Notes under the pieces: model-generated
Told to the model about the DNA's origin: nothing
Databases searched by the model: none
The model's input: only the letters and a program-made list of their open reading frames with translations
Source of the DNA: an uncultured virus (IMG/VR IMGVR_UViG_3300022689_000310)
Taxonomy: Duplodnaviria > Heunggongvirae > Uroviricota > Caudoviricetes
Reading direction: 5' to 3' (one strand)
Length of the DNA stretch: 55,403 bases
IMG/VR virus record: IMGVR_UViG_3300022689_000310
Translations under genes and position numbers: made by a program
Shown here: positions 10,866 to 51,639 of the stretch, one piece after another
Numbering within the stretch: position 1 is the stretch's first letter
How the letters are laid out: each line of letters starts with the position of its first letter

Positions 10866-12590
10866 TCATTCTATATTGATTGACCGAGTTATATCTTTTA
10901 TATTTAGAATCATTACATCTACAATTGGAATACCTAATAATAATAAAGATTTCCTAACTATAATATCTATCAAATAAAATATTTTTAATACTTCTATATC
11001 TATTAAATCTCCTTTAATTACTTGACTATTCTCATATAACTTATTAAATATTTTACATAATAGATATAAATAATTAGTTAAGATATGAGAATGATATTCT
11101 TCTAATACTTCATTTAATATAGATTCAAAGTTAAGTAATAAAAGTAATAATTCTTTTATATATTTATATCTAGTAGTATTTACTTCTTGATGTAAATGTA
11201 TAGATTTAGTTTCTAAGATATCTTTTATATCTTTATTATATTTATCTTTTAATTTATCATTTATACCTCTAATTCTACTCAATACATATAAGAGGTAACA
11301 AATAGTATTTCCTTCTAGACTCAATATATTTTTTATATCAAATATAAAATCTGTATTTCTATGTATAGATAAGTATTGATATTTAATAGCTCCTATAGCT
11401 ATATTTTCATTACCTGCCACTTCTATAGCTTTATTTAACAAATCTTTTATTAAAGGAGTATTTCCTTTTCTACTACTAATCTTACTATTATGTAAATCTT
11501 TTATAAGACCGAATTTTACATGTATAGGTTTACATATTTCTAACCAGTTAGCTCTTGAAGCGGTCTCAAATACAATATTCAAATGGTCTTTCTGTGAAGA
11601 ATCTACAACGTATAAAACTTCATTAAAATTTAAAGATCTTCTCTTTAGTGCTGTTAGATCTGTAGATGTATAAGTATATCCTCCATCACTCTTCTTTATA
11701 ATACTTACCATATCCTTATCTATACTCTTTATACAAATAGCATTATCACTTTCATAAGCTATATCTTTGTCTATTAATTCTTTTATTACCCCTTCAATAT
11801 CTTTTAAATACTTTGATTCTCCTATTTCTTTTAATTCTTTTGATATCCTTATTTTCTCAAATATTTCTTTATAACTTTTTCTACTTAACTCTAAAATATA
11901 ATTAAATTTATTTTGTTCTTCATTAGATTTATTTATAATCCATTTTTGTATTAATAATGTTTTATATCTACTTTCTTCTATAAGTTGTTTATCTTCTCTA
12001 CATAAGTATTTAGCTTTAGAATAATCTATTCCTATATCTTCTATACTCTGAGGTATATAATCCTTATCTTTATACTTATCGTAATAAGCTAATAGTAGAC
12101 CGAATTGAGTTCCACAATCACCTACATGATTAACTCTAGTTATATTATTACCTCTATATTCTAATAACCTTGCTATAAAATCTCCTATTAATAGAGATCT
12201 TAAATGTGCTACATGTAACGGTTTAGCTAAATTTGGACTTCCATAATCTATAAGTATTTTCTTACTATTAAAGTTTTCTATTCTATTGATTGATATTATT
12301 TTATATAAAGTATTTAATATATCTCTTATCTTCTCTTTAGTACATCTTATGGATATAAATCCTTTACCTGTAATTTCATATTCATAGCCTCTATTTTTAT
12401 TTAACTTTCCTACTATATCATTTATTATTTCACTCGGTCTTTTATTAAGTAAACTAGATAATTTGAAACCTATATTACTTTGATAATCATAGTCTTCATA
12501 TTTACTTTTTATAATATCTACTTTAATAGATATATTATATTCTTCTTGTATTACTTTACTTATCTCTTCCTTTATCTCTTTAATTATCAT
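10866..12590 (-). CDS. argS: Arginyl-tRNA synthetase
   Basis: DYQSN, SPNLAKPLHVAHLRS (HIGH), NHVGDCGTQFG, KSDGGYTY, KISSRKG (KMSKS), EGNT..YLLY. Confidence 0.95.
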   Translation of the reverse strand: MIIKEIKEEISKVIQEEYNISIKVDIIKSKYEDYDYQSNIGFKLSSLLNKRPSEIINDIVGKLNKNRGYEYEITGKGFISIRCTKEKIRDILNTLYKIISINRIENFNSKKILIDYGSPNLAKPLHVAHLRSLLIGDFIARLLEYRGNNITRVNHVGDCGTQFGLLLAYYDKYKDKDYIPQSIEDIGIDYSKAKYLCREDKQLIEESRYKTLLIQKWIINKSNEEQNKFNYILELSRKSYKEIFEKIRISKELKEIGESKYLKDIEGVIKELIDKDIAYESDNAICIKSIDKDMVSIIKKSDGGYTYTSTDLTALKRRSLNFNEVLYVVDSSQKDHLNIVFETASRANWLEICKPIHVKFGLIKDLHNSKISSRKGNTPLIKDLLNKAIEVAGNENIAIGAIKYQYLSIHRNTDFIFDIKNILSLEGNTICYLLYVLSRIRGINDKLKDKYNKDIKDILETKSIHLHQEVNTTRYKYIKELLLLLLNFESILNEVLEEYHSHILTNYLYLLCKIFNKLYENSQVIKGDLIDIEVLKIFYLIDIIVRKSLLLLGIPIVDVMILNIKDITRSINIE

Positions 12591-12613: not shown

Positions 12614-13966
12614 CTATTCGTCCAAGATATTATTTAGTTCTCTTATCCATTTATTTATATATTCTTTCTTTTCTGTATATTCTCTAAAATATATTCCATA
12701 TTGATTATCTTCATAATTAATAATTCTTTTACCATTGAAGAAATATATTCCTATTCTACTAGGATCAATATCTATTTCTTCATCTATTAACTTTAAATTA
12801 TTTATCTCTCTTAATCTCTTTATATTATATTTTCCTTCTTCTTTTAATCTATTTAAATGAATATAAATATTTAATGACTCTTTAATAGTATTACTATTCG
12901 TTGTTATTAATAACTTATTGCCATTATTATTATTTATAAATCTAATGAACAACTCTAATAACTTTATCTCATTATTAAAATAAAAGTTATATCCTGATTG
13001 ATCTAAAATTAGAAAGTTATTTATCTCTTTTATCCAATACTTAAAATATAAATATAATATTGATAATTCTTTTACTGTAGATGAACACATATCTAATGGT
13101 ATCTCTAATCTATTACATTTAAATAATACTTGAGGACTATTTGATCCTTTTATAATTATCTCTCCTCCTATTATCTCTTTTAACTTTTCTACTATTTCAT
13201 CCTTTATATATTCTTTATCTTCCCTTAAATCTCTTACTTTATATAACAATTCTTCTATAGGTCTTTTATATTTAACATTATTTTTGCTCTCTATGTATTC
13301 ATAGAAATATTTATAATATTCATTACTAGATGGTAATAGAATACTATTATCTTTATAGTTTAATAGGGTATATAGTAAAGCTTTTAAAACTAAACCTCTA
13401 ATATCATCTAAATCTTTCGTTAGTTTAATTTCTAAATAATTATCATTCTTATATAGTTCTATATTGCTATATATGTTCTCTGAAATAACTACATCTGATC
13501 TCAATATAAGTGAATTGTAACAATAATGAGATCTTAGAAACTGTAAGTCTTTTATATAAAACTCAAATGATGTATTTAAAAGAATAATATCTTTATGTAT
13601 ATTAAGAGTTATATATATTTCTTCTTCTAAGAACTTAGCAAAATCTTTTAATAATACCTGTATAGAATCTAAATAAATTCTTACATTACCTTTATTAGAA
13701 CAATAAATTTCTTCATCTCTATCATCTTTTATAATAAGTCTTTTGCTAATTTCATCTATAAATAACTTTTTCTTATAACCTCTACAAAATTTATTTATTA
13801 CATCTTTATTATAAATAGTCCAAAGTAAACAAGAAATTAAACTCTTTCCACTACTATTTAATCCAATGAATAGATATAAATCTTTATATATATCTATATA
13901 TTCTGTGTTTCCCTGAATAGGTCCTAAGTTTCTTACTAATAATTTCATCTTTTCTCCTTTATACAA
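12614..13966 (-). CDS. ABC-type ATPase (AAA_15/21-like), degenerate Walker B
   Basis: RNLGPI, GLNSSGKS, SSTVKEL signature-like motif, ILDQSG, ITTNS. Confidence 0.75.
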   Translation of the reverse strand: MYKGEKMKLLVRNLGPIQGNTEYIDIYKDLYLFIGLNSSGKSLISCLLWTIYNKDVINKFCRGYKKKLFIDEISKRLIIKDDRDEEIYCSNKGNVRIYLDSIQVLLKDFAKFLEEEIYITLNIHKDIILLNTSFEFYIKDLQFLRSHYCYNSLILRSDVVISENIYSNIELYKNDNYLEIKLTKDLDDIRGLVLKALLYTLLNYKDNSILLPSSNEYYKYFYEYIESKNNVKYKRPIEELLYKVRDLREDKEYIKDEIVEKLKEIIGGEIIIKGSNSPQVLFKCNRLEIPLDMCSSTVKELSILYLYFKYWIKEINNFLILDQSGYNFYFNNEIKLLELFIRFINNNNGNKLLITTNSNTIKESLNIYIHLNRLKEEGKYNIKRLREINNLKLIDEEIDIDPSRIGIYFFNGKRIINYEDNQYGIYFREYTEKKEYINKWIRELNNILDE

Positions 13967-15716: not shown

Positions 15717-15980
15717 TTAATTTTTACTAAACGAATTAATATAGTTTATATATTTTCTATTCATATTTAATACACTTCTTTTCTGTTCATCTGATAATCC
15801 TTTTATATATATATTTTCTGATCTTTCTTCTAAATTGTATATACACTCTATAGATTCTTCTGTTAATGTAATTATTCCTAAATATCCATCTTCATAACAA
15901 AGATAATATCTATTTTGTAAATCCAATATAGGTACTGAATTAATTATTAAACTCAAGCTTACTAAAAGACTTTTCATCAT
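15717..15980 (-). CDS. Small exported two-Cys protein (paralogue family)
   Basis: Signal-like N-terminus, YLC..GYLGIITL..IEC..GLSD. Confidence 0.55.
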   Translation of the reverse strand: MMKSLLVSLSLIINSVPILDLQNRYYLCYEDGYLGIITLTEESIECIYNLEERSENIYIKGLSDEQKRSVLNMNRKYINYINSFSKN

Positions 15981-16735
15981 ATTGGGAATAACTCATTAAA
16001 ATCTTTATCTAATCTATCAAAAAAACCCCTTGGCCAATCTTCTATTATTCCTCCCTCTTTAATTTCTATAAACTGAATAAACCTTTTTCTATTTTTATTA
16101 AAATCTATTAATTTTACCTCCTTTATATTTAAGACTTTTCTTTTTATTTGTATCCTAATACTATTTAAAATGTGAATACTATTTGTCTCTATAAATACTT
16201 TTACTCCCCTTGAAATTAAATAACATATATATACTCCCACTTCTTTCTGTATATCTGGGTGTAGATCATCTTCTATATTTCTTATTAGAACTATATCTCC
16301 TTCATTTAGTTTTAATGTTCTATTTAGTAAAGAACATATTCCATATAAACTTTTATTCTTAAATGTTTTATTTACCTCGGATCTAGTTATCTTATAGAAC
16401 CAATTATATGTATTTTCCTGAGGTATTTCTTCATCTACCATCTGTATATTTGGTATTAGATTTAGATCTCCCTTTATTAAACTTCCTCTTCCACTATCTG
16501 TTCTATATACTATTTCTTTTCCATTAATATTTAGATTAAATATTAATGTATTTGTATAAAAATTACTTATATCTAAATCATATATCTTCTTTATATGTAA
16601 AGCTTTTAAGATATCTATAATTAGATACTTCTCTATATGATTGAACCCAGTAATTATATTTAGATTTGATAATTCTATTATTACTGGATCTTTAAATATA
16701 TTCCTCCCTTCAATCCTAATATTACTTATGCACAT
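15977..16735 (-). CDS. Degenerate ABC-ATPase with DUF3696-like C-terminus
   Basis: ITGFNHIEK (broken Walker A), EDDLHPDIQ, IETNS, DWPRGFFD. Confidence 0.7.
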   Translation of the reverse strand: MCISNIRIEGRNIFKDPVIIELSNLNIITGFNHIEKYLIIDILKALHIKKIYDLDISNFYTNTLIFNLNINGKEIVYRTDSGRGSLIKGDLNLIPNIQMVDEEIPQENTYNWFYKITRSEVNKTFKNKSLYGICSLLNRTLKLNEGDIVLIRNIEDDLHPDIQKEVGVYICYLISRGVKVFIETNSIHILNSIRIQIKRKVLNIKEVKLIDFNKNRKRFIQFIEIKEGGIIEDWPRGFFDRLDKDFNELFPI

Positions 16736-17098: not shown

Positions 17099-18664
17099 TT
17101 AATTATCTTTATTAATAAAGTTTTTTAACTCTTCTATAAAACTTTCTTCATTTACATTTATTTGTTCACCTCTTTTTAAAGATTTTATCTTTATAGTACC
17201 TCTTGAAATATCTTCGGAACCTATTAGAATTAAATAATTAAATCCTGCTTTATTTAATATACCTAACTTATTTTTTAATCTAGCCTTTGTATAGTCAATT
17301 TTATTCTTTATACCATTCTTGTTTAATAAATCACTTATATATAAACTTTTAGATTCTTCTATTTTTCCTATACTTATAATTATAATAGGTTCTTTTTCTT
17401 CAGAAGAATATTTCTCACTTATAATACTTACTATCCTTTCAACTCCCATCGCCCAACCAATTCCTGGTAAGTCAGGACCCCCTAGATCTTTAATTAAGTT
17501 ATTATATCTACCTCCTCCACATAAAGTTTTTTTCTTATAAAATATCTCGAATACTGTATCAGTATAATAATCTATACCTCTTATTAATCTCGGGTTGACT
17601 GTATATTCTACACCTATATCTTTTAATACACTTTTTAATCTATCAAATCTATCTCTAGATACTGTATTGATATATTCATCTATTGTAGGTAAATCATCTA
17701 TTATACTTATAATATATTTATCTTTACTATCTAATATTCTTAATGGGTTTTTATTATATCTGGTTCTAGTTTCTATATCAAAACCCTTTTTGTATTTTTC
17801 TAAAACTTCACTTAACTTTCTATTAAATCTTAATCTATCTATATTACTCCCTATATTATTTATTTCTAATGTTATATTTTCTATTCCTAAACTTTTTAAT
17901 ATACTTATAGCTGATCTTATTACTTCTATATCTAATCTTATATCATCACTACCAATGCATTCCACCCCTAATTGGTTAAACTCCCTACCTCTTCCTCTTT
18001 GGGGTGTTTCATAACGATACATTTTTCCCATATACCAATATTTATTTACTATATCTTTACTTGTATATAAATTATTTTGTATTATTGCTCTCAATACCCC
18101 TAAAGTTCCTTCTGGTCTTAGACATAAATCTCTTCCTCCTCTATCTTTGAATTTATATATTTCCTTTGTAACTATATCCGTATATTCCCCTATATTCCTT
18201 TCATATAAATCAGGTGATTCTAAAATTGGGGTATCTATTCCTTCATATCCTGATATTTCTAATATATCTTTACTCTTTCTTCTTATATCTTCTATAACAT
18301 TAAACTCTTTATGATATATATCTTTTGTCCCCCTCACTCTTCGTATTATTTTATTAGTATTTATCTCTTCTTTATATTCTAATAATTCTTCTAGACTTTT
18401 ATCTATATATATTTCTTCATTATTAATTATATATATCCTTTTATCTTTTACTAATACATTAAAATTATCTCTACTACTTAATAATTTATATTCCTCTTTA
18501 TTTAAATAGTTTTTATTATCTTTTATTAATTCTAATACTCTATATAACTCTTCCTCCATTTCTTTTCCTTCTATTGTTAAACTTATATTCTTTATATTGA
18601 ATATACTTTCTATCTTTTTATAATAATATTTATAATTTTCTATTTCCCTACTTTCCCTCTTCAT
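17099..18664 (-). CDS. hisS: Histidyl-tRNA synthetase with ~105-aa N-terminal extension
   Basis: RGTKD, TPILE, LRPEGT, YRYETPQRGRGREFNQ, RGIDYY, GGGRY, GWAMGVER. Confidence 0.95.
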   Translation of the reverse strand: MKRESREIENYKYYYKKIESIFNIKNISLTIEGKEMEEELYRVLELIKDNKNYLNKEEYKLLSSRDNFNVLVKDKRIYIINNEEIYIDKSLEELLEYKEEINTNKIIRRVRGTKDIYHKEFNVIEDIRRKSKDILEISGYEGIDTPILESPDLYERNIGEYTDIVTKEIYKFKDRGGRDLCLRPEGTLGVLRAIIQNNLYTSKDIVNKYWYMGKMYRYETPQRGRGREFNQLGVECIGSDDIRLDIEVIRSAISILKSLGIENITLEINNIGSNIDRLRFNRKLSEVLEKYKKGFDIETRTRYNKNPLRILDSKDKYIISIIDDLPTIDEYINTVSRDRFDRLKSVLKDIGVEYTVNPRLIRGIDYYTDTVFEIFYKKKTLCGGGRYNNLIKDLGGPDLPGIGWAMGVERIVSIISEKYSSEEKEPIIIISIGKIEESKSLYISDLLNKNGIKNKIDYTKARLKNKLGILNKAGFNYLILIGSEDISRGTIKIKSLKRGEQINVNEESFIEELKNFINKDN

Positions 18665-22782: not shown

Positions 22783-23688
22783 TTATGTCTTTGAGAATCC
22801 CTTTATCTTTATCTTCTCATTTATTTTATCAGAAATGTTTGAATGTCTAATTAAATTTAATTCTCTCATTTTATTTATGTTATAAGTCCAAGGGACCGAA
22901 GAGATAATACAACATATAAAAGAGAATATTGAAGAAGGACTTAAGAGGATTGTATCAATATCAATATCTTGTTCATTTAACTTTAAAGATATTTTTATTA
23001 AGTTTTTCCATATTTTATCTTCTTCTAATTCTAATAAATATAAAAATACTTCTTTAGTTGTACTTATATGTAATTCTTTATTAAAATCTTTATCTAACAA
23101 AGGTGTTTTAGATTTCCAGAATTTAAATAATAAATATTGATTTATATACCTCTTGTAATTAGTTAAAGTTATTATTTTTACTGTTTCAATGTTTTTTTCT
23201 AATACTCTATTTAGACCCTCAATAAATATTTCCTCTTTATTAATACTATCCCTTAACATCTTTCTTAACTTCTTAGGTAATCTGTTAAAATGTTTTTTAT
23301 ATAGCGGTTTTGAATATGTTGTATTTATATCCTTTAATATCTTTATATAATCTATATTTATATCTTCATCTGTATAACTTATTATATTCCATAAATTCTG
23401 TATAAAAAATTGCTTTCTTTGGTTTCTTAATTTCTTTAAAGATATATTTAATTCTTCCTTTCCTTTCTTTGTTTTTGATCTTAATTCACATTCAATATAC
23501 TCTTTATCTCTTTTAAAATGACTAAAATGCGCTTTTACAATTCCTCCATTCTTCTTCTTATATCCTTTCTTTAAAAATACATTCCCTTTACAACATGGAC
23601 ATATTAATAATAAATCCTTATAAGATTCATAATTACATATCTCTGAATCTACCTCTACTAAATTTGTTATCGACCATGCTTTTTGCAC
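22783..23688 (-). CDS. CoiA-N-like zinc-finger protein (paralogue 1)
   Basis: LICPCCKGNVFLK...HFSH...C. Confidence 0.6.
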   Translation of the reverse strand: MQKAWSITNLVEVDSEICNYESYKDLLLICPCCKGNVFLKKGYKKKNGGIVKAHFSHFKRDKEYIECELRSKTKKGKEELNISLKKLRNQRKQFFIQNLWNIISYTDEDINIDYIKILKDINTTYSKPLYKKHFNRLPKKLRKMLRDSINKEEIFIEGLNRVLEKNIETVKIITLTNYKRYINQYLLFKFWKSKTPLLDKDFNKELHISTTKEVFLYLLELEEDKIWKNLIKISLKLNEQDIDIDTILLSPSSIFSFICCIISSVPWTYNINKMRELNLIRHSNISDKINEKIKIKGFSKT

Positions 23689-24868: not shown

Positions 24869-25537
24869 TTAAAGCGTTATTATTGGAGTTTTATAATATT
24901 CTTGGTTAGAATTCTTTATTAAATTAATCCAATCTTTACTACATATTAGATCTATTACATAAGCTACTAATTCACTTCCATCTATTCTGTAGAGTTTTGA
25001 ATTTAGTATGTAATGTAGAATTTCATTCCAAATAATATTACTTTGACTTTCTAATAAAAACTCTAAGATATCCATACATAAAACTGTATTTACTAATATA
25101 TTTGTTTTCCTATTTCCTTCTCTCTTGTATTTATCCATACATGTTTTTATCCATCTATTTCTGTTTGTTTCTATTCTTAAAGTATTTTTTACAAGTTCTC
25201 TCCATATATTTATATCTCCATAAGGATATCTATCTATCTTAGGTAGATTCATCATCTTTAGTAATTTATTTTTATACTTTTGTCTCCTTATACTTTTTAG
25301 ATATATCCTAAATGAAGATAGATTCTTCATCTTCTTTGCATTACAATAAATAGTTTCTTCACTACAATTATGTCTTAAAAACGGATCTATTTTATATATT
25401 TTCTTATAAAAACCTTTCACATAATGTAATTGCCCTTTACATAATGGACATATAATATTTAAATCTTTAGTAGATTTAGAATCTAAATAATTTACTTTTA
25501 AAAGTAAATTTAAATCTCTACACATCCCAATCTTCAT
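24869..25537 (-). CDS. CoiA-N-like zinc-finger protein (paralogue 2)
   Basis: IICPLCKGQL...PFLRH...C. Confidence 0.55.
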   Translation of the reverse strand: MKIGMCRDLNLLLKVNYLDSKSTKDLNIICPLCKGQLHYVKGFYKKIYKIDPFLRHNCSEETIYCNAKKMKNLSSFRIYLKSIRRQKYKNKLLKMMNLPKIDRYPYGDINIWRELVKNTLRIETNRNRWIKTCMDKYKREGNRKTNILVNTVLCMDILEFLLESQSNIIWNEILHYILNSKLYRIDGSELVAYVIDLICSKDWINLIKNSNQEYYKTPIITL

Positions 25538-27771: not shown

Positions 27772-28941
27772 AAAAGACCCCTTTTCTAATTATAATTCAA
27801 TTACCAGTTGAATCAAAAAGGGGTCTGCTGGGTAAACAAACATCATGAATCTCGGACTACCTCCAAGAGGTATTTTATTAACTTTTTAGGAAAAATCTTC
27901 TCCCTAAAATTTATTAAAGGGAGAAGATTTGACAAGGAGAATTTGTGTGTTTTATACGGGAAATGTTCCGTCTTGGACTACCTCCAAGAGGTAGTTATAA
28001 TCTTAAGAAAAAACCCCCTTTTATTTCTACAATTCGATCAAAATAGAAATTAAAAGAGGGTTAGCAAGAGCATAAAAGGCAATGATTTGTCTGACTTATT
28101 AATCAGACTATCTGGTTCTTGGACTACCTCCAAGAGGTAGAAAACCCTCCTATTATAAAGTAAATAGAAGGGCAGATGAGTTAAAAAGGAATTACAAAGT
28201 GATGTTCAATCACATATCTCGGACTACCTCCAAGAGGTAATGTAGTATTAAGAAACCCCTCTCCTTTATTTTTACAATTCAATTAAATAGAAAATAAAGA
28301 GAGGGGTACTTGGTAAACAGATTACCCAAAATCTTGGACTACCTCCAAGAGGTAAAAAATTTAGTATCATTCACATAACTTATTTCTTCTTTTTATATCT
28401 TGCATTGGTTCTAAAAATAAAACATTATTGACCAGAAACAATTCTTAATTGATTTATTTGACTATCAGTAAGTTCTTCTAAATAAGTAGGATTACCTAAA
28501 GAATAATCAATTATATCGATACAAACAACTCTTAAGTCAGGCGTTGGAGAGATAGCAGCAATACCTCCCCCATATTTTTCTAAACAATACAAATAATTAT
28601 CATTTTTATCAAGAATAGGGGAGTATAGAGAGAAATTAGAAGATACAAGTAAAGCGGTTAAAAATTTAAGTACAGTCATAGTTTTATTATATTATTTACA
28701 TTTTTAATAAAAACCTCTTTGATAATAAAATTAGATCAAGATTAAAATCAAAGAGGTTTGGGTTTCTCCTGAATCAATTAGGATCTCGGACTACCTCCAA
28801 GAGGTAAAAAGTCCCTCACTCTTAACGAGCTTGGGAGAGAACTGAACCCCTTGTTATTAAATAAATAAAAGGGGTGTCAGGATTAAGAAGGTACAAATTA
28901 CGTTCAATCAACCTGATGTCTTGGACTACCTCCAAGAGGTA
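27772..28941 (-). repeat. Array B locus 1: seven copies of a 23-bp hairpin repeat with variable segments and terminator-like hairpins
   Basis: Plus-strand TCTYGGACTACCTCCAAGAGGTA at 27850, 27971, 28117, 28217, 28332, 28784, 28919. Confidence 0.95.
28425..28679 (-). CDS. Small exported two-Cys protein inside array B
   Basis: Signal-like N-terminus; YLYC..GGIAAI..VVC..LEELTD. Confidence 0.55.
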   Translation of the reverse strand: MTVLKFLTALLVSSNFSLYSPILDKNDNYLYCLEKYGGGIAAISPTPDLRVVCIDIIDYSLGNPTYLEELTDSQINQLRIVSGQ

Positions 28942-29205
28942 GGAGATTTAATATCCCCAATATAACTTATTTTTTTCTAGCTGCTTCTTTTAATGAACTT
29001 ATTATACTAGAATTCTCTTCATCTTTATATAATTCTTTTCCTGCCATATATATTATTAATATAATTAATGGAGAGAATAATATACTTAATATATATAGAA
29101 TCCATCATATTGTTCTATTTATCATTAATCTTTTCCTCTCTTCAGAATCAATATATTCCTGTTATCTTTCTATTTTATTTTATATAAATATTAGTCCTTA
29201 TTATC

Positions 29206-30183
29206 TCATGATGTAGTTATAGATAAATAATATTGATATATATCTGTTAATTCTATATATTCACTACTTGTGAATATAATCTGAATATTATTTATATTTG
29301 CTATTTCCTTTATTTTCTGAATATAACCTATAGGTATATCTAAATCATCTATAAGTAGTACTTCATTCTTACCTAGTACTATATACATCAATATGTATAA
29401 TATTTTCTCTTGTTTTCTAGATAATACTTTATACCACTTATTATTTATCTTTATCTTTATGTTTGATATTTCATAAACTATATATTCCTTTTGTATAGTT
29501 ACTTGTTTATTTATATAAATATCCTCTATATTTAATACTTCCTTTATATAGTTAATTAATCTACTATATAAATTATCAATATTATTACTCTTTACTATAT
29601 CTATCTTTTCTAATATATGTACTCTACTTTCTTTTATATCTTCTTCACTTTTTATTTTTAATATATAGTTATAATATTTTTCTAAACTAGCTTTTGTCTT
29701 ATAAGTCTTTCTAAACTTTTTACTAGATATATTTTCTATATTGATTATATTTCCCAACTCTTTTTTTAATACTTTTACTTCATTTGGTTCTTCCAATAAA
29801 TATAATAAAGTTGCGTTGATAGATAATTTTATTTTATATTCTTTTCCTTCTATATATGTAATATCATTAGCTCTAGAAAATACCTTTTTTTTATTTACAA
29901 TTAAACATTCATTATTAATATTAAGTTTATGTTCACTTACTGAACCTTCTGAGACCTCTGAAGGTGCAATATCCTCATTCTTTATTTCTCCATTCCATTC
30001 ATATACATCATCATTTATCTCTATAATCAATTCCCATTTATAATAATTACTAAATTCACATTTATCTATTAATCCTGTACCTATTTGCTTTAGGTTATAT
30101 ATAGAATTTAATAATAAACTTTTACCTGATGCTATATCTCCATAGATACAATTCATATATTTATTAAATGAGACCGGTCCCAA
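29206..30183 (-). CDS. ABC-type ATPase; true start probably slightly upstream
   Basis: YGDIASGKS, LLIDD, IIFTS; frame stays open up to an AAGGAGGT SD near 30235. Confidence 0.7.
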   Translation of the reverse strand: MGPVSFNKYMNCIYGDIASGKSLLLNSIYNLKQIGTGLIDKCEFSNYYKWELIIEINDDVYEWNGEIKNEDIAPSEVSEGSVSEHKLNINNECLIVNKKKVFSRANDITYIEGKEYKIKLSINATLLYLLEEPNEVKVLKKELGNIINIENISSKKFRKTYKTKASLEKYYNYILKIKSEEDIKESRVHILEKIDIVKSNNIDNLYSRLINYIKEVLNIEDIYINKQVTIQKEYIVYEISNIKIKINNKWYKVLSRKQEKILYILMYIVLGKNEVLLIDDLDIPIGYIQKIKEIANINNIQIIFTSSEYIELTDIYQYYLSITTS

Positions 30184-30306: not shown

Positions 30307-30954
30307 TTAATACTTTTCAAGTGCTATTTTGAGAGCATCATTATAAGTATGATTAAATGGAAAATATTTAGTGGGTATGTCTCCTTTCCAACTATCTTTT
30401 AATTTATAAGATTTTATAGATGTTTTAGAATCTTTACTTTCTTTATATAATAGATTTATTATTACATCTTCACTATTAATATTTCCCTCTATTATATTTA
30501 TAGTAATAGCATCCATTACTTGTAAAGAATGAGTTTCTAATACTATACTATTTTTATTATTTAGTCTTTCTACAATATAGTTAGTTAGTCTATGTATATA
30601 TTTCTCTGATAATCCCAATTCAGGATGTTCTATAGCGACTTTATTCCGAGATATATTAGATAGTTCTAATATTATAGGTATAGATAAATTAATACCTGCG
30701 CTATTTGATTGTTCAAAAATATTATTTTTCTCATCAATATTAAATATCTTTCTTATAATTGGTTGACTTTCAGGAGTTAACTCGTAAAACCTTCCTCTTG
30801 TAGTATTTAATACTTTAAAACTTTCCTTATTTTTCAATTCTCTTATCACTTCACTCTTACCTGTTGCATTATCTCCTATCAATATTGTCAAACGTTTTAA
30901 GATAATCTCATCTTCTTTATTAAATATTTTATTGATTAATTTTAAGCTTTTCAT
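30307..30954 (-). CDS. Compact ABC-type ATPase
   Basis: IGDNATGKS, SAG, IEHPELGL, LETHS. Confidence 0.75.
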   Translation of the reverse strand: MKSLKLINKIFNKEDEIILKRLTILIGDNATGKSEVIRELKNKESFKVLNTTRGRFYELTPESQPIIRKIFNIDEKNNIFEQSNSAGINLSIPIILELSNISRNKVAIEHPELGLSEKYIHRLTNYIVERLNNKNSIVLETHSLQVMDAITINIIEGNINSEDVIINLLYKESKDSKTSIKSYKLKDSWKGDIPTKYFPFNHTYNDALKIALEKY

Positions 30955-32129
30955 CTTTCTAAATTTCTTAATTACTACTTATAGATTATTATTTAATTTA
31001 TATATTTATATTTAATATTTTATCTATATCTTTTTTAAATATATCGATAGGATATTCTTTATGATTTATAACTAATGGATGAATAATTCTAATTACATTA
31101 CAATTTTCTAAAGGTATTAAATTTATTTCTTTATGTTTAAATACTTCTTTTTGTTCATTTAAGAAAGTATCTAATGATTCTTCTATAAGATTATTAGTCC
31201 TATATTTCATTTCATTAAATACATCTTCAACTTCAATCTGATATCTATTCAAATTACCATCATTATAATTTTCATACACAGATATATATGCTCCTTTATT
31301 ATATTGTCTTCTTATTAATCTTTGCCATTTCTCCAAAGTATCTAGTCTATTTGTTCCATTAAGAAAAAAGGTATATCCAGGTATAGATATACCTATATCT
31401 ATACTTTTTTCTTCAAATCTATTATATATAGTATTTCTCTTTATCAACTTAAAGTATTTAATAATATTACATTTCATATATTCTTTATTCATTCTTTAAT
31501 TTCCCATCTATTCTCTTTATAATTAAATATTATTACATCATTCCAAGGTAGAGTGAAAGCTTTAGATTTATCTATTTTTTCTTTCGATATTTCATATTGA
31601 GGACAATTCTTTTCTATATATTTTTCTACTATATCTTGATCGTTTAATAAAAATAGAATAAGAGCATTATCTGTAGTTCTTGCTTTTTCATCATTATTCC
31701 AATTTTCTTCTGTCCTTAGTAATACATTTAAATGGTCTAACAGATCTATTGTTAAATAATTTATATTCTTTTCCATACAATTTCTCTTATTAAATTAGTC
31801 TTCTAATTACTTTACAAAAGTCTCGCTTCGCTCGACACTAAAAGGGGTATCTGGTTAAATAAACTCTTTATACTTAAGACATATTAAAACTGTTTAAGTT
31901 AAGAAGGTCCCAAATATAAACATAACTGACCCCTTTATTTTTTTACTTAAATATAAATATTAATTATTCGGTCAATTTAAATTTAAAAGTATTCTAATTA
32001 CTTTATAACTAAAGTAATTTAATAAAAGAGGAGGATTAAGTTAAATTTTTTACCAGCGTTGGTTTTCTATAAAGAAGAACTTTAATTATTTAGTTGACTT
32101 TAATTCAAAAGTCTTCCAATTACTTAAGG

Positions 32130-32436: not shown

Positions 32437-34548
32437 ATGAAAACCCAATCTTATAATGATCAAGTTCGTCATGATAAAGATGGCTCACTCCCATCTTCTT
32501 CTAATTATAATATATCTTCTATAAGTAATAAAGAGCTAAATAAAATGAGCAGTACAAAAATCCTTAATAAAAAATTCACTGGTAAAATCACAGCACGCAC
32601 TTCTAAAGGTAAAGATCGTTCTCTTACCATTAGTGCTATTTTCAATAAACTAGATCTTATGGATCTTTATCTTAGAGCTATTGGTACTAATGATCAAGAT
32701 AGAATAAAAATCTCTTTAAATCTTACTGCCGACCATAAAGGTCGTACTCTTGCCCTTAAAGAAGGTTTATATTGGATTACAGAGCAAAATGTTTACTCTG
32801 ATGGTACTAAGTATACATCTTCAGAAGCTTTAGAAAAGCTTCAATCTTTAGGTATTCTAAAAAAAGTATCTCATTCTCAATATGTTAAAGGTGTTGCTAC
32901 TGAAGCAGTTGTAAATAAAGTTAAGAAATTAGCTTATATTGTAAGTGATTCTATTTGTTTTATCTTAGATAATTCTTTTTTTGATATTATTGAGTTGGCT
33001 GAAAGTATTTATTCGATCTCTACAGATAAAGTTTATTGGGAAGATCCTACTAAACAAATGATTGCTAAAATAGCTGAAAAAGCTTATCTCACTTCTCTTA
33101 ATAGAAATAACTCTGAAAAGTTTATTCGTATCACTTTCTCCCTTTCTAGAATTAAAGGAATTCAGAGTCGAGAAGGTATTACATCTTCTTTAGTTTTAAC
33201 TCTTATTGATGCTTTCCTTCCGGGTTATCAACCAGGTAGGAAACAAAAGATTTATGAAATATTACAGAAGAAATATTCTCTTGAAGAGAAAGAGTTAGAA
33301 GAAATTAGAAAACATCAAGAATATAAAGAATATCAAGAACAAGGGGTTTTTGAGCAGACGATAAATAAAGATAAGGAAACAGAAACGCTCTTGCAGAAAG
33401 AACAAGATAAGGACATGAAAGTAGAGGGGAAAGGGAAGAAGGGTAAGATGAGGGGTGAGCTAGAAAGGTTATTACAAAGGGAGATATACAGGGAGAGTCA
33501 TGACCTTCCCTGTATATCCCCATCATTTATCCATGCCCTTGAGACCTTACCTCCCGCCCAACTCCAGCCTGTCCGCTCTACCACTCCTTCTGCCCTGCGA
33601 GCGGAGTGTTCTACATATCTCAGTGAGACAATAAGTGAATATGCATCTGTGTATAATGAAGCGATAGGTTTAAATGTATTGAGATATAGATGTAGGGATC
33701 TCCAAGATGTAAGGCAAAAGGAAGTACTAAAGAGAGAAGCCCTTCCTGTGGAATATTTATTACTATCGGATAATAGTGCCCGAATGTATAGTAAGAGGAA
33801 AGATAATTTATTTTATTGTAGGAAGGATTTAAGGATAAGTGCGTTAGAAGGGATGGGATTTAAGGATGTAGACATGCAAAGTTGTCATGCCCAGATAGCG
33901 GTAAGTTTATGGGGAGAAGAGCTAAAGACGTTAAAAGAACATTTAGATAAAGGAACATTATGGAGTTATTATAAGAGCCATTTCGAGAGTAATGGTTTAA
34001 AGTTCTATAAAGGATTAATAAAAGGATTACATCATGCTAGTTTTCTTGGAGGAGGGAAGAAAGCTCAAGAGAAGATATTAAGAGGATATAATGTAAAGAA
34101 TAAAGGTAAGGAGATAAAAGAAGAAGAATGGAAGAAGATAATAAAGTGTTTTAAGGATAGTGAAGTATATAAAGAATTAAGAAAGTTATTCAGGAAGTTA
34201 AGTAAAGAATGGCATAATAAAACGATAACAACGATAACAGGGGAAAGTTTTGATGTAAGAGGATACAGAAAATATAAAGAGAATGGGGTAACTAAGAGCA
34301 ACCCCGGTAATTTATTAACAGCGATATCAGCAGTACTACAATCAATAGAAGTAACATTAATATCTTATATGATATTAAGAAGTAAAGAATTATTTGTACC
34401 AATATTATGGCAACATGATGGATTAACGATCAAGTGTTTATATAGTAATACAGTAGAATTAATGCAAGAAGCATTAGATGAATATAGTAAAAAGTTATTA
34501 GGAAGACGGATAAAATTAGTAGCTACAGATTTAGATCAAATGAAATAA
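32437..34548 (+). CDS. Family-A polymerase-like (TV-Pol-like) protein, possible replication initiator/primase
   Basis: C-terminal R-MY, DVDMQSCH (motif A), K..HHASFLGG (motif B-like), LQSIE, QHDG (motif C); no exonuclease motifs recognised. Confidence 0.6.
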   Translation: MKTQSYNDQVRHDKDGSLPSSSNYNISSISNKELNKMSSTKILNKKFTGKITARTSKGKDRSLTISAIFNKLDLMDLYLRAIGTNDQDRIKISLNLTADHKGRTLALKEGLYWITEQNVYSDGTKYTSSEALEKLQSLGILKKVSHSQYVKGVATEAVVNKVKKLAYIVSDSICFILDNSFFDIIELAESIYSISTDKVYWEDPTKQMIAKIAEKAYLTSLNRNNSEKFIRITFSLSRIKGIQSREGITSSLVLTLIDAFLPGYQPGRKQKIYEILQKKYSLEEKELEEIRKHQEYKEYQEQGVFEQTINKDKETETLLQKEQDKDMKVEGKGKKGKMRGELERLLQREIYRESHDLPCISPSFIHALETLPPAQLQPVRSTTPSALRAECSTYLSETISEYASVYNEAIGLNVLRYRCRDLQDVRQKEVLKREALPVEYLLLSDNSARMYSKRKDNLFYCRKDLRISALEGMGFKDVDMQSCHAQIAVSLWGEELKTLKEHLDKGTLWSYYKSHFESNGLKFYKGLIKGLHHASFLGGGKKAQEKILRGYNVKNKGKEIKEEEWKKIIKCFKDSEVYKELRKLFRKLSKEWHNKTITTITGESFDVRGYRKYKENGVTKSNPGNLLTAISAVLQSIEVTLISYMILRSKELFVPILWQHDGLTIKCLYSNTVELMQEALDEYSKKLLGRRIKLVATDLDQMK
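33481..33520. other. Near-perfect 40-bp palindrome, candidate replication origin
   Basis: GATATACAGGGA-GA-GTCATGAC-CT-TCCCTGTATATC, G-rich to the left and C-rich to the right. Confidence 0.5.
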
Positions 34549-40272: not shown

Positions 40273-41298
40273 TTAATGTTTAAGTAAATATTTATTACTT
40301 ATAACTTTAAAACTAGTTTGATTATCATAAGTTCTAATGACTAAACCTTCTCTATTAGTTAAAGGATTCAGTATAGAAGAACCTTCAGCTAATAATAATA
40401 GCTCCTCAATAGTATCAGGAAGTTTATAGTTCTCTTCTATAATAGGTACTATATTAAGTCCCATAGAAAAGATTACTCTTTCTAATACTTTTTTATCTAA
40501 TTTCTTAGAAGTACTTATATCAAATAAGGTAAAGAAATAAATATCATTAGTATGTAATGCATATTTATTTTTATTAATACCTTCTCCTAGAAGTTCTCCT
40601 TGTATAGCGATATTATCTAGAGGTAAATTTTTCAGTTTAGATATAATATCTAAACTTTTTACAGTATCCCAATATCTATCTCTATCATTTTCTAAAAGTT
40701 CTATATTTCTAGAACAGACTCCTATTTTCCCTTCAAATTTATAAATAGTTATAGAAGAGCCATCTAACTTTTCAGTTAAATAATAACTTTTAGTTTTTAA
40801 CTCTTCATAACAGGAATATAAATTTTGTATTCTCTCTTCATCTGTTTTCTCTATATAACTTGGTATAGAACCTTTAGCTCTACTATACATTTCTTTAGGT
40901 AATGGACGTTCATATTTCCTAATACCAAGTATATCTGTTAAGTCAAAACCCTCTACCAATTTAATGTCTTTTAATTCATCAAATAAAGAAGGATTGAGTA
41001 GTAAGCCTTGTGACACTTGACCTCTTAATTTTTTAGTTTTGAGTAAATATCCTTTATAAATTTCTTTTGAGTCAGTACTATCAGAAGATTCTTTAATAGA
41101 ACTCTTATTTAAGAATTCGAATTCTGGTCTTAGAGGTAAAAGAGAGTCTATTTCAAAATAGACTCCTATATCTCCAACTTTAAATTCACCCCTTTTTACA
41201 ACTACATTCCACCCATCAATTGAAGCTAATTCAATAAGATCAGCTCCATCAATAGATTTAATATCTATTACTTTTCTAAAGCTAGCTAGCTTTCTCAT
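40273..41298 (-). CDS. RNA ligase, DRB0094 family
   Basis: RKLAS, GADLIE, YFEIDS, LRGQVSQG, KTDEERIQN, TEKLDGSS, QGEL, REGLV, SFKVISN. Confidence 0.92.
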   Translation of the reverse strand: MRKLASFRKVIDIKSIDGADLIELASIDGWNVVVKRGEFKVGDIGVYFEIDSLLPLRPEFEFLNKSSIKESSDSTDSKEIYKGYLLKTKKLRGQVSQGLLLNPSLFDELKDIKLVEGFDLTDILGIRKYERPLPKEMYSRAKGSIPSYIEKTDEERIQNLYSCYEELKTKSYYLTEKLDGSSITIYKFEGKIGVCSRNIELLENDRDRYWDTVKSLDIISKLKNLPLDNIAIQGELLGEGINKNKYALHTNDIYFFTLFDISTSKKLDKKVLERVIFSMGLNIVPIIEENYKLPDTIEELLLLAEGSSILNPLTNREGLVIRTYDNQTSFKVISNKYLLKH

Positions 41299-43049
41299 TA
41301 TTTATCTCCTTTTTTGTTAAAAATATTTATCTTTTTAGGAGTCTTAAGAGCTTGAAGATTAGGAATATGATCTTCTAAAAAGGCAATATGTTTACTCTTA
41401 ATACCAATACAATAAGCAGCATTTATATCTGCATTAATACAAAGTTTAGTCCCATTAGGATCATAATACACCTTCCCTTCTTTAGAGGTATTAATGTACG
41501 TTACATATAGACCTCTATATTTTCTATTTCCAAGAGGATTAAAATCTACTTTACTTTTTTTCTCTTTATTTTGTTTATCAGAAGAATTGTCCTCTTCGTA
41601 ATCTTCAGGATTATAAACAGGAATATCTCTATTCAGGAAACAAGATTTACTAGTATAAGATTCTTCTTGTAGTATTAATTTAATACCATATCTTTTACAA
41701 TAATAAGCTAATTTGGACTTAAAATTATTAAAAGGAATCATAACAAAGTTCTGATTATTCTTTTTACTTAAATTAATATTTGTTTTCTGTTTTTTATTAT
41801 GACCTATAATAATAGTACCAATATCTTTTTCAATACAATAAGAAATTACTTCTAAACAAGCTTTATACATATAATCTCTTAACTTACAACTTCGACTATA
41901 ACTAATATTTACTTGTTCATCAGTAAACTTTCTTCTACGTCTTTTTATATTAGAAAATTCTTTTGTTTCTGTATTATCTTCATTATGTGTTTTCATACCT
42001 TTACTGATTAACTCTTCATTCAGCTTTTTATCTTCTTGAGATTGAATAGCCGCCATCTTTTTATTATAAAAATGATTAGTAGATTTCATGCATTTTCCGT
42101 TTATAATAAAAGAAGAGTCTTTCTGACCATCAGTAAATGCTGCATAAGCTGATACGAAGTTATTTACTCCTAAATCAATACTTAATGCGTTATTTTCATT
42201 TAATCCTTTTGCTTCAATTTCATGAGCAGTAACAAAGTGTACTTTTATTACTCTCCCATTATAAGCAGGTTCGATTCTAATTAGTTTTAGTACCGTCCCT
42301 TCTTTCATTAATCTTTCTGGAAAAGGAATCTTGCAATAATTATTAGTACCCCTTCTCTTAGGAATTTTAATATAATATTTACCTCTCCCTATTTGGCCTT
42401 CTTTATATTCTTTTACCGATTTTAAGATATTAGTAGGGTCACCTATCCTAAAACAAATTTCGTTATAACCTTTTCTGGGTTTTCCTTCTTCCTCCTTTTG
42501 TCCCTTGTAATAAGGTAGTTTAACCGGTTCTTTATACTTCCCACTTAATTTCTTATTAAGTAAGGCTATATAAGATTTATAAGAGCTAAATGCTTGTTTT
42601 AATACATTATTTGAAATCACTGAAGGTAAACAAATAAAGTTTTCATCCTTTTTTACAGTGTTATAAAGTTCCTTTTCATCTATATAATTAGGAAAATTAC
42701 CTTCCTCCCTTTTTCTTTTTATGATCTCTTTTAATTCTTTATGTTCAATATCTCTTCCTAATTCTTCTTTTAATTGTTCTTTTACTTCATCTGTTAGCTT
42801 CTTTATTTCATAATCTCTTTGTCTAATAATATATAAACATCTATTAAATAGTGCACAAGATTTTCTAAATAGATCAAATAAATAATTTATTTCTTCTTGT
42901 TCTAAATATTTTAAGTCCAATGTATTTGTTTGAGTTCTATATTGAATCTCTTTAAGCTCCTTATTAGGCTCTTTACTTTCTTTTTTATCAATACTTATCT
43001 TTTGTTCACTTAATTCTACTACTTCATTATATTCATCTTCTGATTTCAT
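41298..43049 (-). CDS. tnpB: TnpB-like RuvC nuclease without adjacent transposase
   Basis: SIDLGVNN (RuvC-I), QEESYTSK (RuvC-II), RGLY, INADINAA (RuvC-III); catalytic D/E/D present. Confidence 0.9.
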   Translation of the reverse strand: MKSEDEYNEVVELSEQKISIDKKESKEPNKELKEIQYRTQTNTLDLKYLEQEEINYLFDLFRKSCALFNRCLYIIRQRDYEIKKLTDEVKEQLKEELGRDIEHKELKEIIKRKREEGNFPNYIDEKELYNTVKKDENFICLPSVISNNVLKQAFSSYKSYIALLNKKLSGKYKEPVKLPYYKGQKEEEGKPRKGYNEICFRIGDPTNILKSVKEYKEGQIGRGKYYIKIPKRRGTNNYCKIPFPERLMKEGTVLKLIRIEPAYNGRVIKVHFVTAHEIEAKGLNENNALSIDLGVNNFVSAYAAFTDGQKDSSFIINGKCMKSTNHFYNKKMAAIQSQEDKKLNEELISKGMKTHNEDNTETKEFSNIKRRRRKFTDEQVNISYSRSCKLRDYMYKACLEVISYCIEKDIGTIIIGHNKKQKTNINLSKKNNQNFVMIPFNNFKSKLAYYCKRYGIKLILQEESYTSKSCFLNRDIPVYNPEDYEEDNSSDKQNKEKKSKVDFNPLGNRKYRGLYVTYINTSKEGKVYYDPNGTKLCINADINAAYCIGIKSKHIAFLEDHIPNLQALKTPKKINIFNKKGDK

Positions 43050-43082
43050 TTTTCCTTCCTCCTATCCTTTTACAATATATAT

Positions 43083-43321
43083 ATTATTCAGTTGACTATA
43101 TCTATCTAGTCTTCTGATTACTTTTAACCTTACAAAGAAATTTCTTTAATAAGGACACTTATTATTCAGTTGACTAAGACATATAGTTTTCTAATTACCT
43201 TTTTATGAGAAAATTAGTTGATTCCTTTAGTAAGAATACTTACTATTCAGTTGCCTAGATCTATTTAGTCTTCTGATTACTTTATTATGAACTAGTTCTC
43301 ATAAGCCTCGCTTCGCTCGGC
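43083..43321 (-). repeat. Three ~44-bp imperfect-hairpin repeats (period 78/81) plus a GCGAAGC element, upstream of tnpB
   Basis: TATTCAGTTGACTA..TAGTCTTCTGATTAC variants with the CAGTTG core at 43089, 43167, 43248; GCCTCGCTTCGCTCGGC at 43305. Confidence 0.85.
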
Positions 43322-43383
43322 ACTATACGGATATCTAATTAAATAAATCCTTATACATTATAGACTCAATAAATCCTTATATA

Positions 43384-43701
43384 TCAAAGACCAGTATCTT
43401 GTACCCCTGCTAAATTTAGTACTCTATCTTTTCCATTATTTGAAAGGGTAGTAAAATATATTCTTGCATTTATTACATACGAACATATAAAGTCTTCATT
43501 CTCCTCATATCTAAAGTTCCCATTTTTATCTATTAATACTACATAACCTTCTTCCTCTTTACAAGGATAAAATTGTCCATTAATACTAATTACTCCTAAT
43601 TGATTATAAGCTTGAGCTTTTAGAAATATATTTAATAATGTATATATAATAATAGTTAAACTTAAAGTTAAATTTAATTTTTGTTTATAAGTTAGTTTCA
43701 T
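43384..43701 (-). CDS. Small membrane-anchored two-Cys protein (paralogue family)
   Basis: TM segment then YPC..EGYVVLID..FIC..TLSN. Confidence 0.55.
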   Translation of the reverse strand: MKLTYKQKLNLTLSLTIIIYTLLNIFLKAQAYNQLGVISINGQFYPCKEEEGYVVLIDKNGNFRYEENEDFICSYVINARIYFTTLSNNGKDRVLNLAGVQDTGL

Positions 43702-44076
43702 AAAATTTTCCTCCTAATTTTATCTTTTTATTACTTTTAGAATGAATTAGTTTTCATAAGCCTCTCTCCGCTCGGTACTAATTAATAAACTAGTTTCAGT
43801 TTAAAAAGGGTGTCTATTAGTATTGATACCCTCCAAAGTTAAAATCTCCACTTTCTTTCTCTTTTATAGTGACAACATTTATTACTCAGTTGACTATATT
43901 TATTTGGTCTTCTGATTACTTTTTACATATTCCTAATAATATTGATGAAGTTCATTAGAGTGTTTTTTCACTTAGCATTATAAATAAAAGAGGATATAAA
44001 CTTTATATCCTCTTATCTTTAAAGCATCTCTTCACGTAGTCTGACCTCAACAATCCCTTGAGGGATTATATTTATG

Positions 44077-44979
44077 TCATCCAAAACCTTTATTTTTTTT
44101 ATTAAATAGTTTAGTTTTCTTCTTCTTATTTAAAAGATCGTTTAAAATCAAATATCTCATGTTATAAGACCAATCTGTTAAACCTATCAAAGCTGCAAAT
44201 GAAAATGATAATTTTTTATAATCTAATATATCTCTTTTACTATGATCTGGAAAAGAGTTTTTCATTATACTCACTTTTACCAACTTATCCCATAGTTTTT
44301 TATCATTACATTCTAGTAGATATAAAAATACTTCTTTACTTACTTCTAGATGAAAATTAGTATCAAAATCATTTCTTAGTAATGAGAACTTTGACTCCCA
44401 ATATTTTAGATTATGTCCCTTAAATCTTTCTTTATCTTCAAATACTATTAATATTGTACCTAGACTTGAGTTTAATCCCTTTTGCGTTAATATTTTAACT
44501 TCTTCCTCTATACTAATATTTCTTACTATAGAATTTGTTTTTAGATTCTCTTTTATAAACTTTTTTATCTTATTAGGTAATTCATTTATTAACTTTTTAT
44601 CTTTAAATTCCCAATATATACTATCTACCTTTTTTATTTCTTCTTCAAAATCATAATCATTTCTTGTATAACTAAATATTTCCCATAAATATTCTCTAAA
44701 TAACTCTTTCCTCTGATTTCTTAACTCTTTTACTCCTAATTCTATTAGTTTATTCCCTCCTTTAGAATTTACTCTTAAACGACATTCTTCTGTCTCTTCT
44801 GTTTTCTGAAAATGTCTAAAATGAGACTTTACTTTTTTTCCTTTCCTCTTAAATTCTTTTGTTAAGTAAACTTCTTTTTTGCAATATGGACAGATTAATC
44901 CCCAATCTTTATAAGACTCATAATTACACATATTAGGTGTAATTGTTGTTAGATTATATATCGACCAGCATATATCCAT
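44077..44979 (-). CDS. CoiA-N-like zinc-finger protein (paralogue 3)
   Basis: CNYESYKD.GLICPYCK...HFRHF...EC; full-length similarity to 22783..23688. Confidence 0.6.
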   Translation of the reverse strand: MDICWSIYNLTTITPNMCNYESYKDWGLICPYCKKEVYLTKEFKRKGKKVKSHFRHFQKTEETEECRLRVNSKGGNKLIELGVKELRNQRKELFREYLWEIFSYTRNDYDFEEEIKKVDSIYWEFKDKKLINELPNKIKKFIKENLKTNSIVRNISIEEEVKILTQKGLNSSLGTILIVFEDKERFKGHNLKYWESKFSLLRNDFDTNFHLEVSKEVFLYLLECNDKKLWDKLVKVSIMKNSFPDHSKRDILDYKKLSFSFAALIGLTDWSYNMRYLILNDLLNKKKKTKLFNKKNKGFG

Positions 44980-45059
44980 TTCTTCCCCTCCTCTCTTTTC
45001 TCTTATACTCTATTTATTTTTATATCAATTTCTCGAAGATTTTTCTTTTGGTATGAACA

Positions 45060-46270: not shown

Positions 46271-46398
46271 AACTAATTTCAGTATAACAGTTGAGTTTCT
46301 GAACTGAATCTTTTAAAGTTTGGGGAGGTTTACAGAGGGAATCAAATCCCTCTGTAAGTTTGGTAGATTTCTAAAAGTAACCCAACCTCTTTTATTTT

Positions 46399-46560
46399 TT
46401 AATTTGGAGGATAAACTATAGGATCTTCATCATCATAGTTATAAGAAGATTTAGAGTCGGTATCTTTAGAATCATATTGTGGTTCTAACCATACCATTGG
46501 ATCTCCATCTTCACTGTATAAAGTATTTTCTTCTTTTCTTTCTTTCTCATTTTCATTCAT
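46399..46560 (-). CDS. 53-aa acidic peptide (not in ORF track)
   Basis: AAGGAGA SD then MNENEKERKEENTLYSEDGDPMVWLEPQYDSKDTDSKSSYNYDDEDPIVYPPN; a hairpin follows at 46329-46357. Confidence 0.55.
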   Translation of the reverse strand: MNENEKERKEENTLYSEDGDPMVWLEPQYDSKDTDSKSSYNYDDEDPIVYPPN

Positions 46561-47336: not shown

Positions 47337-47385
47337 TAAACTGCTTTATATTCAACGTTATATTTAGTGAATATAAAGCAGTTTA
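47337..47385. terminator. 18-bp perfect inverted repeat, terminator-like
   Basis: TAAACTGCTTTATATTCA-N13-TGAATATAAAGCAGTTTA, intergenic. Confidence 0.5.
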
Positions 47386-50943: not shown

Positions 50944-50987
50944 TTCCTTTTTTCTCCTTTTACTCTATTTATTCTATTATTAAATAT

Positions 50988-51587: not shown

Positions 51588-51639
51588 ATCTTTTGATCTA
51601 CTTTATTACATTTATTCTTCTAAAAGAGCACATTGATTT

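Follow-up and report, generated by a model that had tools for sequence, protein, structure and literature searches.

What kind of element is a phage locus in which one and the same 23-nt hairpin precedes, over and over again, a different stretch of structured sequence? The question is raised by positions 27772-28941 of the window, by which we mean the whole stretch of DNA analysed here (55,403 nucleotides, part of a contig of 117,403 bases). The initial annotation had described seven minus-strand copies of a 23-mer, hereafter the handle, at spacings of 121, 146, 100, 115, 452 and 135 bp, and this proved exact, the copies having their low coordinates at 27850, 27971, 28117, 28217, 28332, 28784 and 28919. 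Three additional minus-strand copies were found at 51708, 51797 and 51893 (51.7-51.9 kb), two of them with a doubly compensated stem. In 100 shuffles of the window the 23-mer was matched not once, even with 3 mismatches allowed, and no handle beyond these ten was found on either strand of the window at up to 4 substitutions.

Across the ten copies, 18 of the 23 handle positions are invariant and the pairing of the 7-bp stem is kept in 70 of 70 cells. One stem pair occurs as U-A (5 copies), U-G (3) and C-G (2), the next one as G-C (8) and A-U (2); on a measure inflated by related rows, this level of covariation was matched by 3 of 500 shuffles, and slid controls were 17-54% paired. The double compensation counts as one event, common to the two neighbouring copies of units 9 and 10, and palindrome correction at the DNA level can also give a compensated stem. 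RNA stems usually change through a wobble intermediate. The U-G wobble on the minus strand, taken earlier as a sign of a minus-strand RNA, is indeed present in three of the ten handles, whereas the G-U totals over whole units (25 minus, 21 plus) do not separate the strands. When whole units were folded, the handle stem reached a probability of at least 0.8 in 8 of 10, and the minus strand gave the more stable fold in 7 of 10. An alternative 6-bp hairpin, mutually exclusive with the main stem, is conserved too and competes with it in two units. The arms make two symmetric 7-bp half-sites with a 5-bp spacer between them, the two halves are SD-like and anti-SD-like, and the handle contains UG, plus CCA in 5 of 10 copies.

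Each of the ten units consists of a handle, a unique variable segment of about 24-56 nt (with boundaries set by us) and a long hairpin of its own, in keeping with the earlier claim that a unique segment and a different hairpin follow every copy. In the long 3' hairpins the 5' arm is rich in C and the 3' arm rich in G, with a short U-run behind, and in 7 of 10 units a second small unique hairpin stands directly behind the handle. Listed in the direction of the minus strand, unit 1 (28842-28941) has its handle at 28919-28941, a segment complementary to an SD motif and start codon (with one G-U pair) and a 3' hairpin; an extra hairpin with 4 U (28807-28840) stands immediately before the handle of unit 2 (28707-28806; handle 28784-28806, a U-G variant), which continues with a short variable segment and a long 3' hairpin with U-run. 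The 452-bp gap between units 2 and 3 contains a minus-strand ORF of 84 aa (28425-28679) without Pfam, PHROG or PADLOC match. Unit 3 (28252-28354; handle 28332-28354) has a 5-bp hairpin and a long 3' hairpin. Unit 4 (28140-28239; handle 28217-28239, a U-G variant) carries a segment complementary to SD and a GTG start, related to that of unit 1, and a 3' hairpin. Unit 5 (28005-28139) begins with a handle at 28117-28139, 1 nt after the U-run of unit 4, and goes on with an 8-bp hairpin, a segment complementary to SD and a TTG start, and a long 3' hairpin. The cluster ends with unit 6 (27888-27993; handle 27971-27993), whose segment is complementary to SD and a GTG start and whose 3' hairpin has a 5' arm that is also anti-SD, and unit 7 (27772-27872; handle 27850-27872, a U-G variant), whose segment opens with the complement of ATG before a long 3' hairpin. 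In the second cluster, likewise on the minus strand, unit 8 (51822-51915; handle 51893-51915) has a segment complementary to SD and a GTG start, related to units 1 and 4, and a 3' hairpin; unit 9 (51742-51819; doubly compensated handle 51797-51819) has a segment that opens with the complement of ATG and a 3' hairpin with U-run; and unit 10 (51639-51730; doubly compensated handle 51708-51730) has a short segment and a long 3' hairpin with U-run.

Seven of the ten handles sit 0-18 nt after the U-run of the preceding hairpin, the exceptions being units 1, 3 and 8. Such distances leave no space for a normal promoter, which bears out the suspicion voiced in the initial annotation for some of the units. 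Units 1 and 3, which are the first to follow coding DNA, have in common an upstream block (minus strand, 28942-28972 and 28355-28385; repeat family D9) that includes an identical 9-mer 31 nt before the handle and is 82% identical over 57 nt; the two blocks are candidate promoters of sub-arrays 1 and 2. Because of this shared block and the seven handles lying close behind hairpins, the array is probably transcribed as three short polycistrons, i.e., units 1-2, 3-7 and 8-10. The covariation with its wobble intermediate, the stem probabilities and the closely following handles speak at the sequence level for the structured minus-strand RNA that had been claimed, in which a 5' hairpin stays constant and another part varies. 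The label of terminator fared less well: every unit does have its own long hairpin, but the U-runs after several of them hold only 3-4 U, and a simple terminator scan of the array called 2 sites, both of which are the handle itself and neither a long hairpin, so that the label is not established. Three further ideas were dropped: a sigma-70 promoter for each unit (11 sites in the scan against 11.7 in shuffles), a pseudoknot of the 5' tail with the handle loop (linkers of 0 and 1 nt were judged too short) and small peptides made from the SD-like core of the handle (no consistent frame).

The variable segments show a directional bias. On the reverse complement, 5 of 10 (units 1, 4, 5, 6 and 8) read as an SD motif that is followed after 7-9 nt by a start codon; the other five lack this pattern, and in two of these, units 7 and 9, the segment opens with the complement of ATG without an SD motif. 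With a looser SD test (SD motif, 5-11 nt, start codon on the reverse complement), framed post hoc once the pattern had been noticed, the count of 5 of 10 compares with a shuffle mean of 1.24 (P 0.0025), and these five segments present the features of trans-encoded antisense sRNAs, namely an intergenic position, structure and a seed complementary to a translation start. If wobble pairs are disallowed, 4 of 10 segments qualify (P 0.009); if two related units are removed, 3 of 8 do (P 0.03). In the sense orientation none of the ten segments has SD plus start, and among non-coding control stretches of the window the anti-start pattern occurred in 8 of 312. The reading frames implied by the anti-start segments contain no stop inside the segment.

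Some of the segments are, moreover, related to each other. The alignment between those of units 1 and 4 is significant (0 of 300 shuffles), and the segment of unit 8 aligns weakly with both, so that duplication accounts for at least some of the set; this kinship points to duplication and divergence rather than to the acquisition of spacers. The proposal of programmable guides or small RNAs (sRNAs) made in the initial annotation is thereby divided: the variable parts do resemble antisense seeds, in the five anti-start units, and the kinship of three of them argues against their having been acquired as spacers. All in all, we regard the array as real and selected, probably at the RNA level, and as modular, with antisense-like middles.

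In whose cells would such RNAs act? The window has a GC content of 24%, and the minus strand carries nearly all of its long ORFs. It contains two tRNA-Ser genes, ArgRS, HisRS, RNA ligase, RNase H, a TnpB/Cas12f-like gene and several AAA_21-type ATPases; four of its proteins strongly match phage families of unknown function. The best named relatives of HisRS and ArgRS are cyanobacterial (30-41% identity), and among 20 relatives looked up for a 703-aa gene, two clusters are labelled Planktothrix and Arthrospira. On account of these synthetase matches and labels, we read the window as belonging to an uncultured large phage of filamentous cyanobacteria; judged by its sequence, the source is probably a large AT-rich cyanobacterial phage. 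A host-type AAA protein, tried as a host marker, gave no match.

Several of these genes merit a description of their own. The phage-borne ArgRS and HisRS of cyanobacterial type lie at 10866-12590 and 17099-18664, HisRS carries an extra N-terminal part of about 100 aa, and one contig of about 210 kb contains relatives of both. The 703-aa gene (32437-34548) is the only long gene on the plus strand, with a divergent start just behind two tRNA genes; its product, without Pfam or PHROG match, is structurally near family A DNA polymerases and has 30 relatives at E below 1e-30 (29-54% identity). The TnpB/Cas12f-like gene (41298-43049, minus strand, 583 aa), whose stop overlaps the start of the RNA ligase gene, has no transposase alongside; its RuvC triad appears intact by eye, and the protein is about 150 aa longer than its relatives. 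Four degenerate-looking ATPase genes of the ABC/AAA_21 type (12614-13966, 15977-16735, 29206-30183 and 30307-30954) resemble anti-phage components (PADLOC models NsnB, AbiLi, PDC and HEC) without the partner nucleases, and may possibly be decoys. There are also three paralogous CoiA/DUF7830-like zinc-finger genes, at 22783-23688, 24869-25537 and 44077-44979.

The array is accompanied by other repeats in the window. A second array on the minus strand (5870-6660) has six units in a similar style built on a different conserved element, a 6-bp hairpin with a variable loop of 6-7 nt, a shared A-rich motif before it and often a U-run after it; the units continue with a unique segment of 15-35 nt and a unique GA-rich hairpin, and the pattern of the element had no match in IMG/VR. 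An intergenic family (31805-32125 and 43055-50049) of at least 9 copies, up to 150 nt long, has a conserved GC-rich core and includes four tandem copies at a period of about 240 nt (45170-46043); its members are candidate origin iterons or early promoters, and the core pattern had no match in IMG/VR either. Around the second cluster, 50700-53276 is a mosaic of duplicated gene pieces (e.g., 136 nt at 90% between 51988 and 52679), suggesting that the cluster was inserted into this region or duplicated with it.

We searched for targets of the variable parts at several levels. Self-targeting within the window was rejected, as none of the 70 visible gene starts matched above chance. Strong SD motifs are found at 50% of these 70 phage gene starts and at 27% of 262 host starts; since they are commoner at the phage's own starts, phage genes beyond the window stay possible targets. 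No target above chance emerged from 301 class-level and 144 family-level (Planktothrix family) cyanobacterial genomes, with the best 2-5 candidates per genome scored, nor from phages or plasmids. The 144 family genomes were searched with the whole array and four sub-regions, the segment of unit 3 being covered by one of these searches only; in the large genome searches up to 30 loci per search were inspected, and small full-depth searches likewise gave nothing above chance. Of 48 distinct best matches (from 244 fetched cyanobacterial loci), 5 cover a gene start in antisense and 1 in sense, compared with 0 of 19 control pieces; the difference goes the expected way but is not significant. A wobble-tolerant 32-letter pattern of unit 4 was found in 0 of 201 genomes, the seed common to units 1 and 4 in 1 of 151 (control 2), with no convincing gene start among at least 93 viral matches, and the seed of unit 7 in 6 of 144 genomes at three independent loci (control 2).

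Individual leads, all at chance level, are scattered over different genomes and fail to converge on a single host; genomes with one candidate site lacked sites for other units, save one genome with two. In one genome, unit 7 matches a DUF6883 gene at its start (18 of 18 positions). Unit 4 matches, again in one genome, the beginning of a gene for a small membrane protein (22 of 23) and also a site upstream of another gene (18 of 18). For unit 6, five genomes have an intergenic match of about 80% over 36-44 nt. The 5' arm of the unit 6 hairpin is the exact complement, over 19-21 nt, of a site in 39 of 144 genomes; in 15 of 15 loci inspected, this site is where ribosomes would bind ahead of an oxidoreductase gene of the nitrogenase-component-1 type, which we take to be chlN. 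We keep it as a lead only: by estimate, chance alone should give about one match of this kind, and the arm is buried in a stem.

Relatives of the handle were equally elusive. Exact and degenerate handle patterns gave 0 loci in IMG/VR, and a looser one gave at least 113 stretches, all 80 among the matches listed with a single match; in JGI metagenomes the handle yielded two single matches, both in unrelated DNA. Protein anchors led to no related viral contig, no INPHARED record and nothing in the 144 family genomes. At 2-3 mismatches the handle occurs in 30 of 121 cyanobacterial genomes, about as many as for the reversed control, and the 30 host loci inspected were coding DNA or hairpin ends like those of mobile elements; a multi-copy host match was found neither in the 121 genomes at 3 mismatches nor by BLAST in the 144. 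As far as the collections searched show, the handle appears to be lineage-restricted. The array also gave no Rfam family at gathering score (best 11-24 bits, thresholds 40-330), the only Rfam matches of the window being the two tRNAs. We found no account of such an architecture in the open-access literature, which does not imply its absence from print.

By the features tested, the array is not a CRISPR array, a TIGR array, a TnpB omega-RNA or an Rfam family. Neighbouring cas genes, whose absence had been claimed, were indeed not found among the ORFs compared (77 of 98 with Pfam, 24 with PADLOC); the TnpB/Cas12f-like gene is 12 kb away. The judgement that the segments are too long and structured for CRISPR is likewise sustained by their lengths, their structure and the hairpin that each one has: CRISPR spacers are uniform and have no internal terminator-like hairpins, whereas the periods here are 89-146 nt plus one of 452. 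Closest in outline are viral CRISPR mini-arrays and the solitary repeat units called Racrs, which mimic the CRISPR repeat of the host, have no adjoining cas genes and place a unique sequence after a hairpin repeat (PMC10651486); the present units differ in their irregular lengths and in the hairpin that ends each of them, and their handle matched no host repeat in the 121 + 144 genomes sampled, which may not include the host. TIGR-Tas arrays are also phage-borne tandem units of constant and variable parts, and the UG and CCA of the handle recall them, but the 36-nt period, the alternating edge and loop repeats and the paired spacers of 8-12 nt in fixed register described for them (PMC12045711) are missing here. 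Instead there is one repeat type only, with variable parts of 24-56 nt and no second conserved motif; no Nop-domain gene was found among the scanned ORFs, and the upstream neighbour of the array is an AAA_21-type ATPase. TnpB omega-RNA, for its part, is a long scaffold at the 3' end of tnpB with a 3'-terminal guide, whereas the shared part here measures 23 nt, the units are 9-13 kb from tnpB, and the longest handle match inside tnpB is 9 nt.

Among phage and cyanobacterial sRNAs two comparisons are instructive. The c4 RNA of P1/P7 is a structured phage antisense RNA that blocks translation by pairing around the ribosome-binding site (PMC12197685), the very mechanism that we infer here; it is one RNA with one target mRNA, whereas here there are ten tandem-style units with an invariant 5' hairpin and different putative seeds. 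NsiR1 of Nostoc is likewise a tandem sRNA from a cyanobacterium, with variants acting on the 5' UTRs of different mRNAs, but it is host-encoded, in 12 copies of which 7 are identical and each has its own promoter (PMC9045159), whereas the present element is phage-borne and its units have only 23 nt in common. The phage sRNAs covered in PMC12197685 are mostly single genes, and the cyanophage non-coding RNAs named in PMC9964418 are Rfam families, none of which matched the window.

With these observations in mind, we give an even chance to the reading that the units encode a family of trans-acting antisense sRNAs of a cyanobacterial phage, each about 75-135 nt long, co-transcribed and processed, which would share a 5' handle and block translation starts. 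The polycistrons would be cut within their AU-rich linkers, so that each RNA would start with the 23-nt handle and finish with its individual hairpin; the cutting could be done by a host nuclease (e.g., RNase E), and the RNAs released would be capped by hairpins at both ends. Cyanobacterial RNase E is described as cutting single-stranded A/U-rich sites and as maturing a CRISPR array (PMC8682795). The handle may protect the 5' end and/or bind a processing or matchmaking protein, and the variable middle would pair with a target mRNA (from a host gene or from a phage gene outside the window) across its ribosome-binding site and start codon, blocking its translation. The set would have been enlarged through duplication of units and divergence of their middles.

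A more ambitious variant deserves mention as a tentative possibility, clearly less probable than the antisense family itself. The handle might be the loading site of a dedicated protein, encoded by the phage outside the window or by the host, and the units its guides, which would amount to a new RNA-guided silencing of mRNAs at start codons with a bank expandable like a viral microRNA cluster; the second six-unit array would then possibly serve another partner. Protein loading is kept open because the near-invariance of the handle exceeds the needs of a protective stem.

Rather unlikely, in our opinion, is that the handle itself is the working part, either in multi-copy decoy RNAs that titrate a host protein (RNA-binding regulator, nuclease or defence protein) with drifting middles, or through a generic action of its SD-like and anti-SD-like halves. 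Phage decoy RNAs do exist, as AgvB (PMC12197685) and Racrs (PMC10651486) illustrate, and a handle so constant amid units that otherwise differ, the conserved alternative hairpin (suggestive of sequence-specific recognition) and genome searches that returned no targets would all suit a decoy. Titration leaves unexplained, however, why the anti-start bias runs in one direction and why every copy has a different, well-formed 3' hairpin, and no handle-like host element was found in the 121 cyanobacterial genomes at 3 mismatches beyond the reversed control.

Slightly less likely again is that the handle acts as DNA, be it a phage-specific promoter for short RNAs that start after it, the palindromic operator of a dimeric protein, or a site of protein binding without RNA role. 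Here the symmetric half-sites would find their natural use, a promoter within the handle would account for units that start right behind a hairpin, and copies of NsiR1 do have individual promoters (PMC9045159). What speaks for an RNA instead is that the variation is of the kind that RNA pairing allows, U-G occurring on the minus strand alone, that a separate promoter-like block lies upstream of units 1 and 3, and that all ten copies precede short hairpin-ended segments and none a protein gene anywhere in the 55 kb.

We consider it improbable that the units are guide RNAs, made of a 5' handle and a spacer aimed near gene starts, for a Cas complex of the host, for the TnpB/Cas12f-like protein of the window or for an unseen phage protein. 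Type V and VI crRNAs have the handle first and then the variable part, and this same order in our units, the intact-looking TnpB/Cas12f-like ORF (41298-43049) and the limited view that the 55-kb window gives of a contig of at least 117 kb lend the idea some appeal. It is weakened by variable parts that are of 24-56 nt, structured, ended by their own hairpins and partly paralogous, by a handle that matches no repeat array in the genomes searched and has no anti-repeat longer than 10 nt within the window, and by a TnpB whose closest relatives are ordinary IS605-type proteins (28-35% identity). Nor was any near-perfect, spacer-like protospacer match found in phages, plasmids or sampled genomes, which may not include the true host and co-occurring phages. 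Finally, non-functional relics, whether left behind by a miniature mobile element or produced by random duplication of a terminator region, are very improbable: a variant handle does resemble the hairpin-forming ends at several host loci, read as cyanobacterial mobile-element ends, and the window is rich in repeats, but the ten copies all have one orientation and no inverted partner, the handle is nearly invariant beside unrelated neighbours, and changes in its stem are compensated.

If the antisense reading is true, the ten RNAs, alike in their handle and different in their anti-start seeds, would form a bank and mean that a phage builds a modular silencing repertoire by duplication and re-targeting, and the array would indicate host or phage genes that are important in the infection of filamentous cyanobacteria. 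Should a protein load on the handle, the locus would in addition yield an RNA-guided repressor of a new type and, for work in cyanobacteria, a compact scaffold for knock-down.
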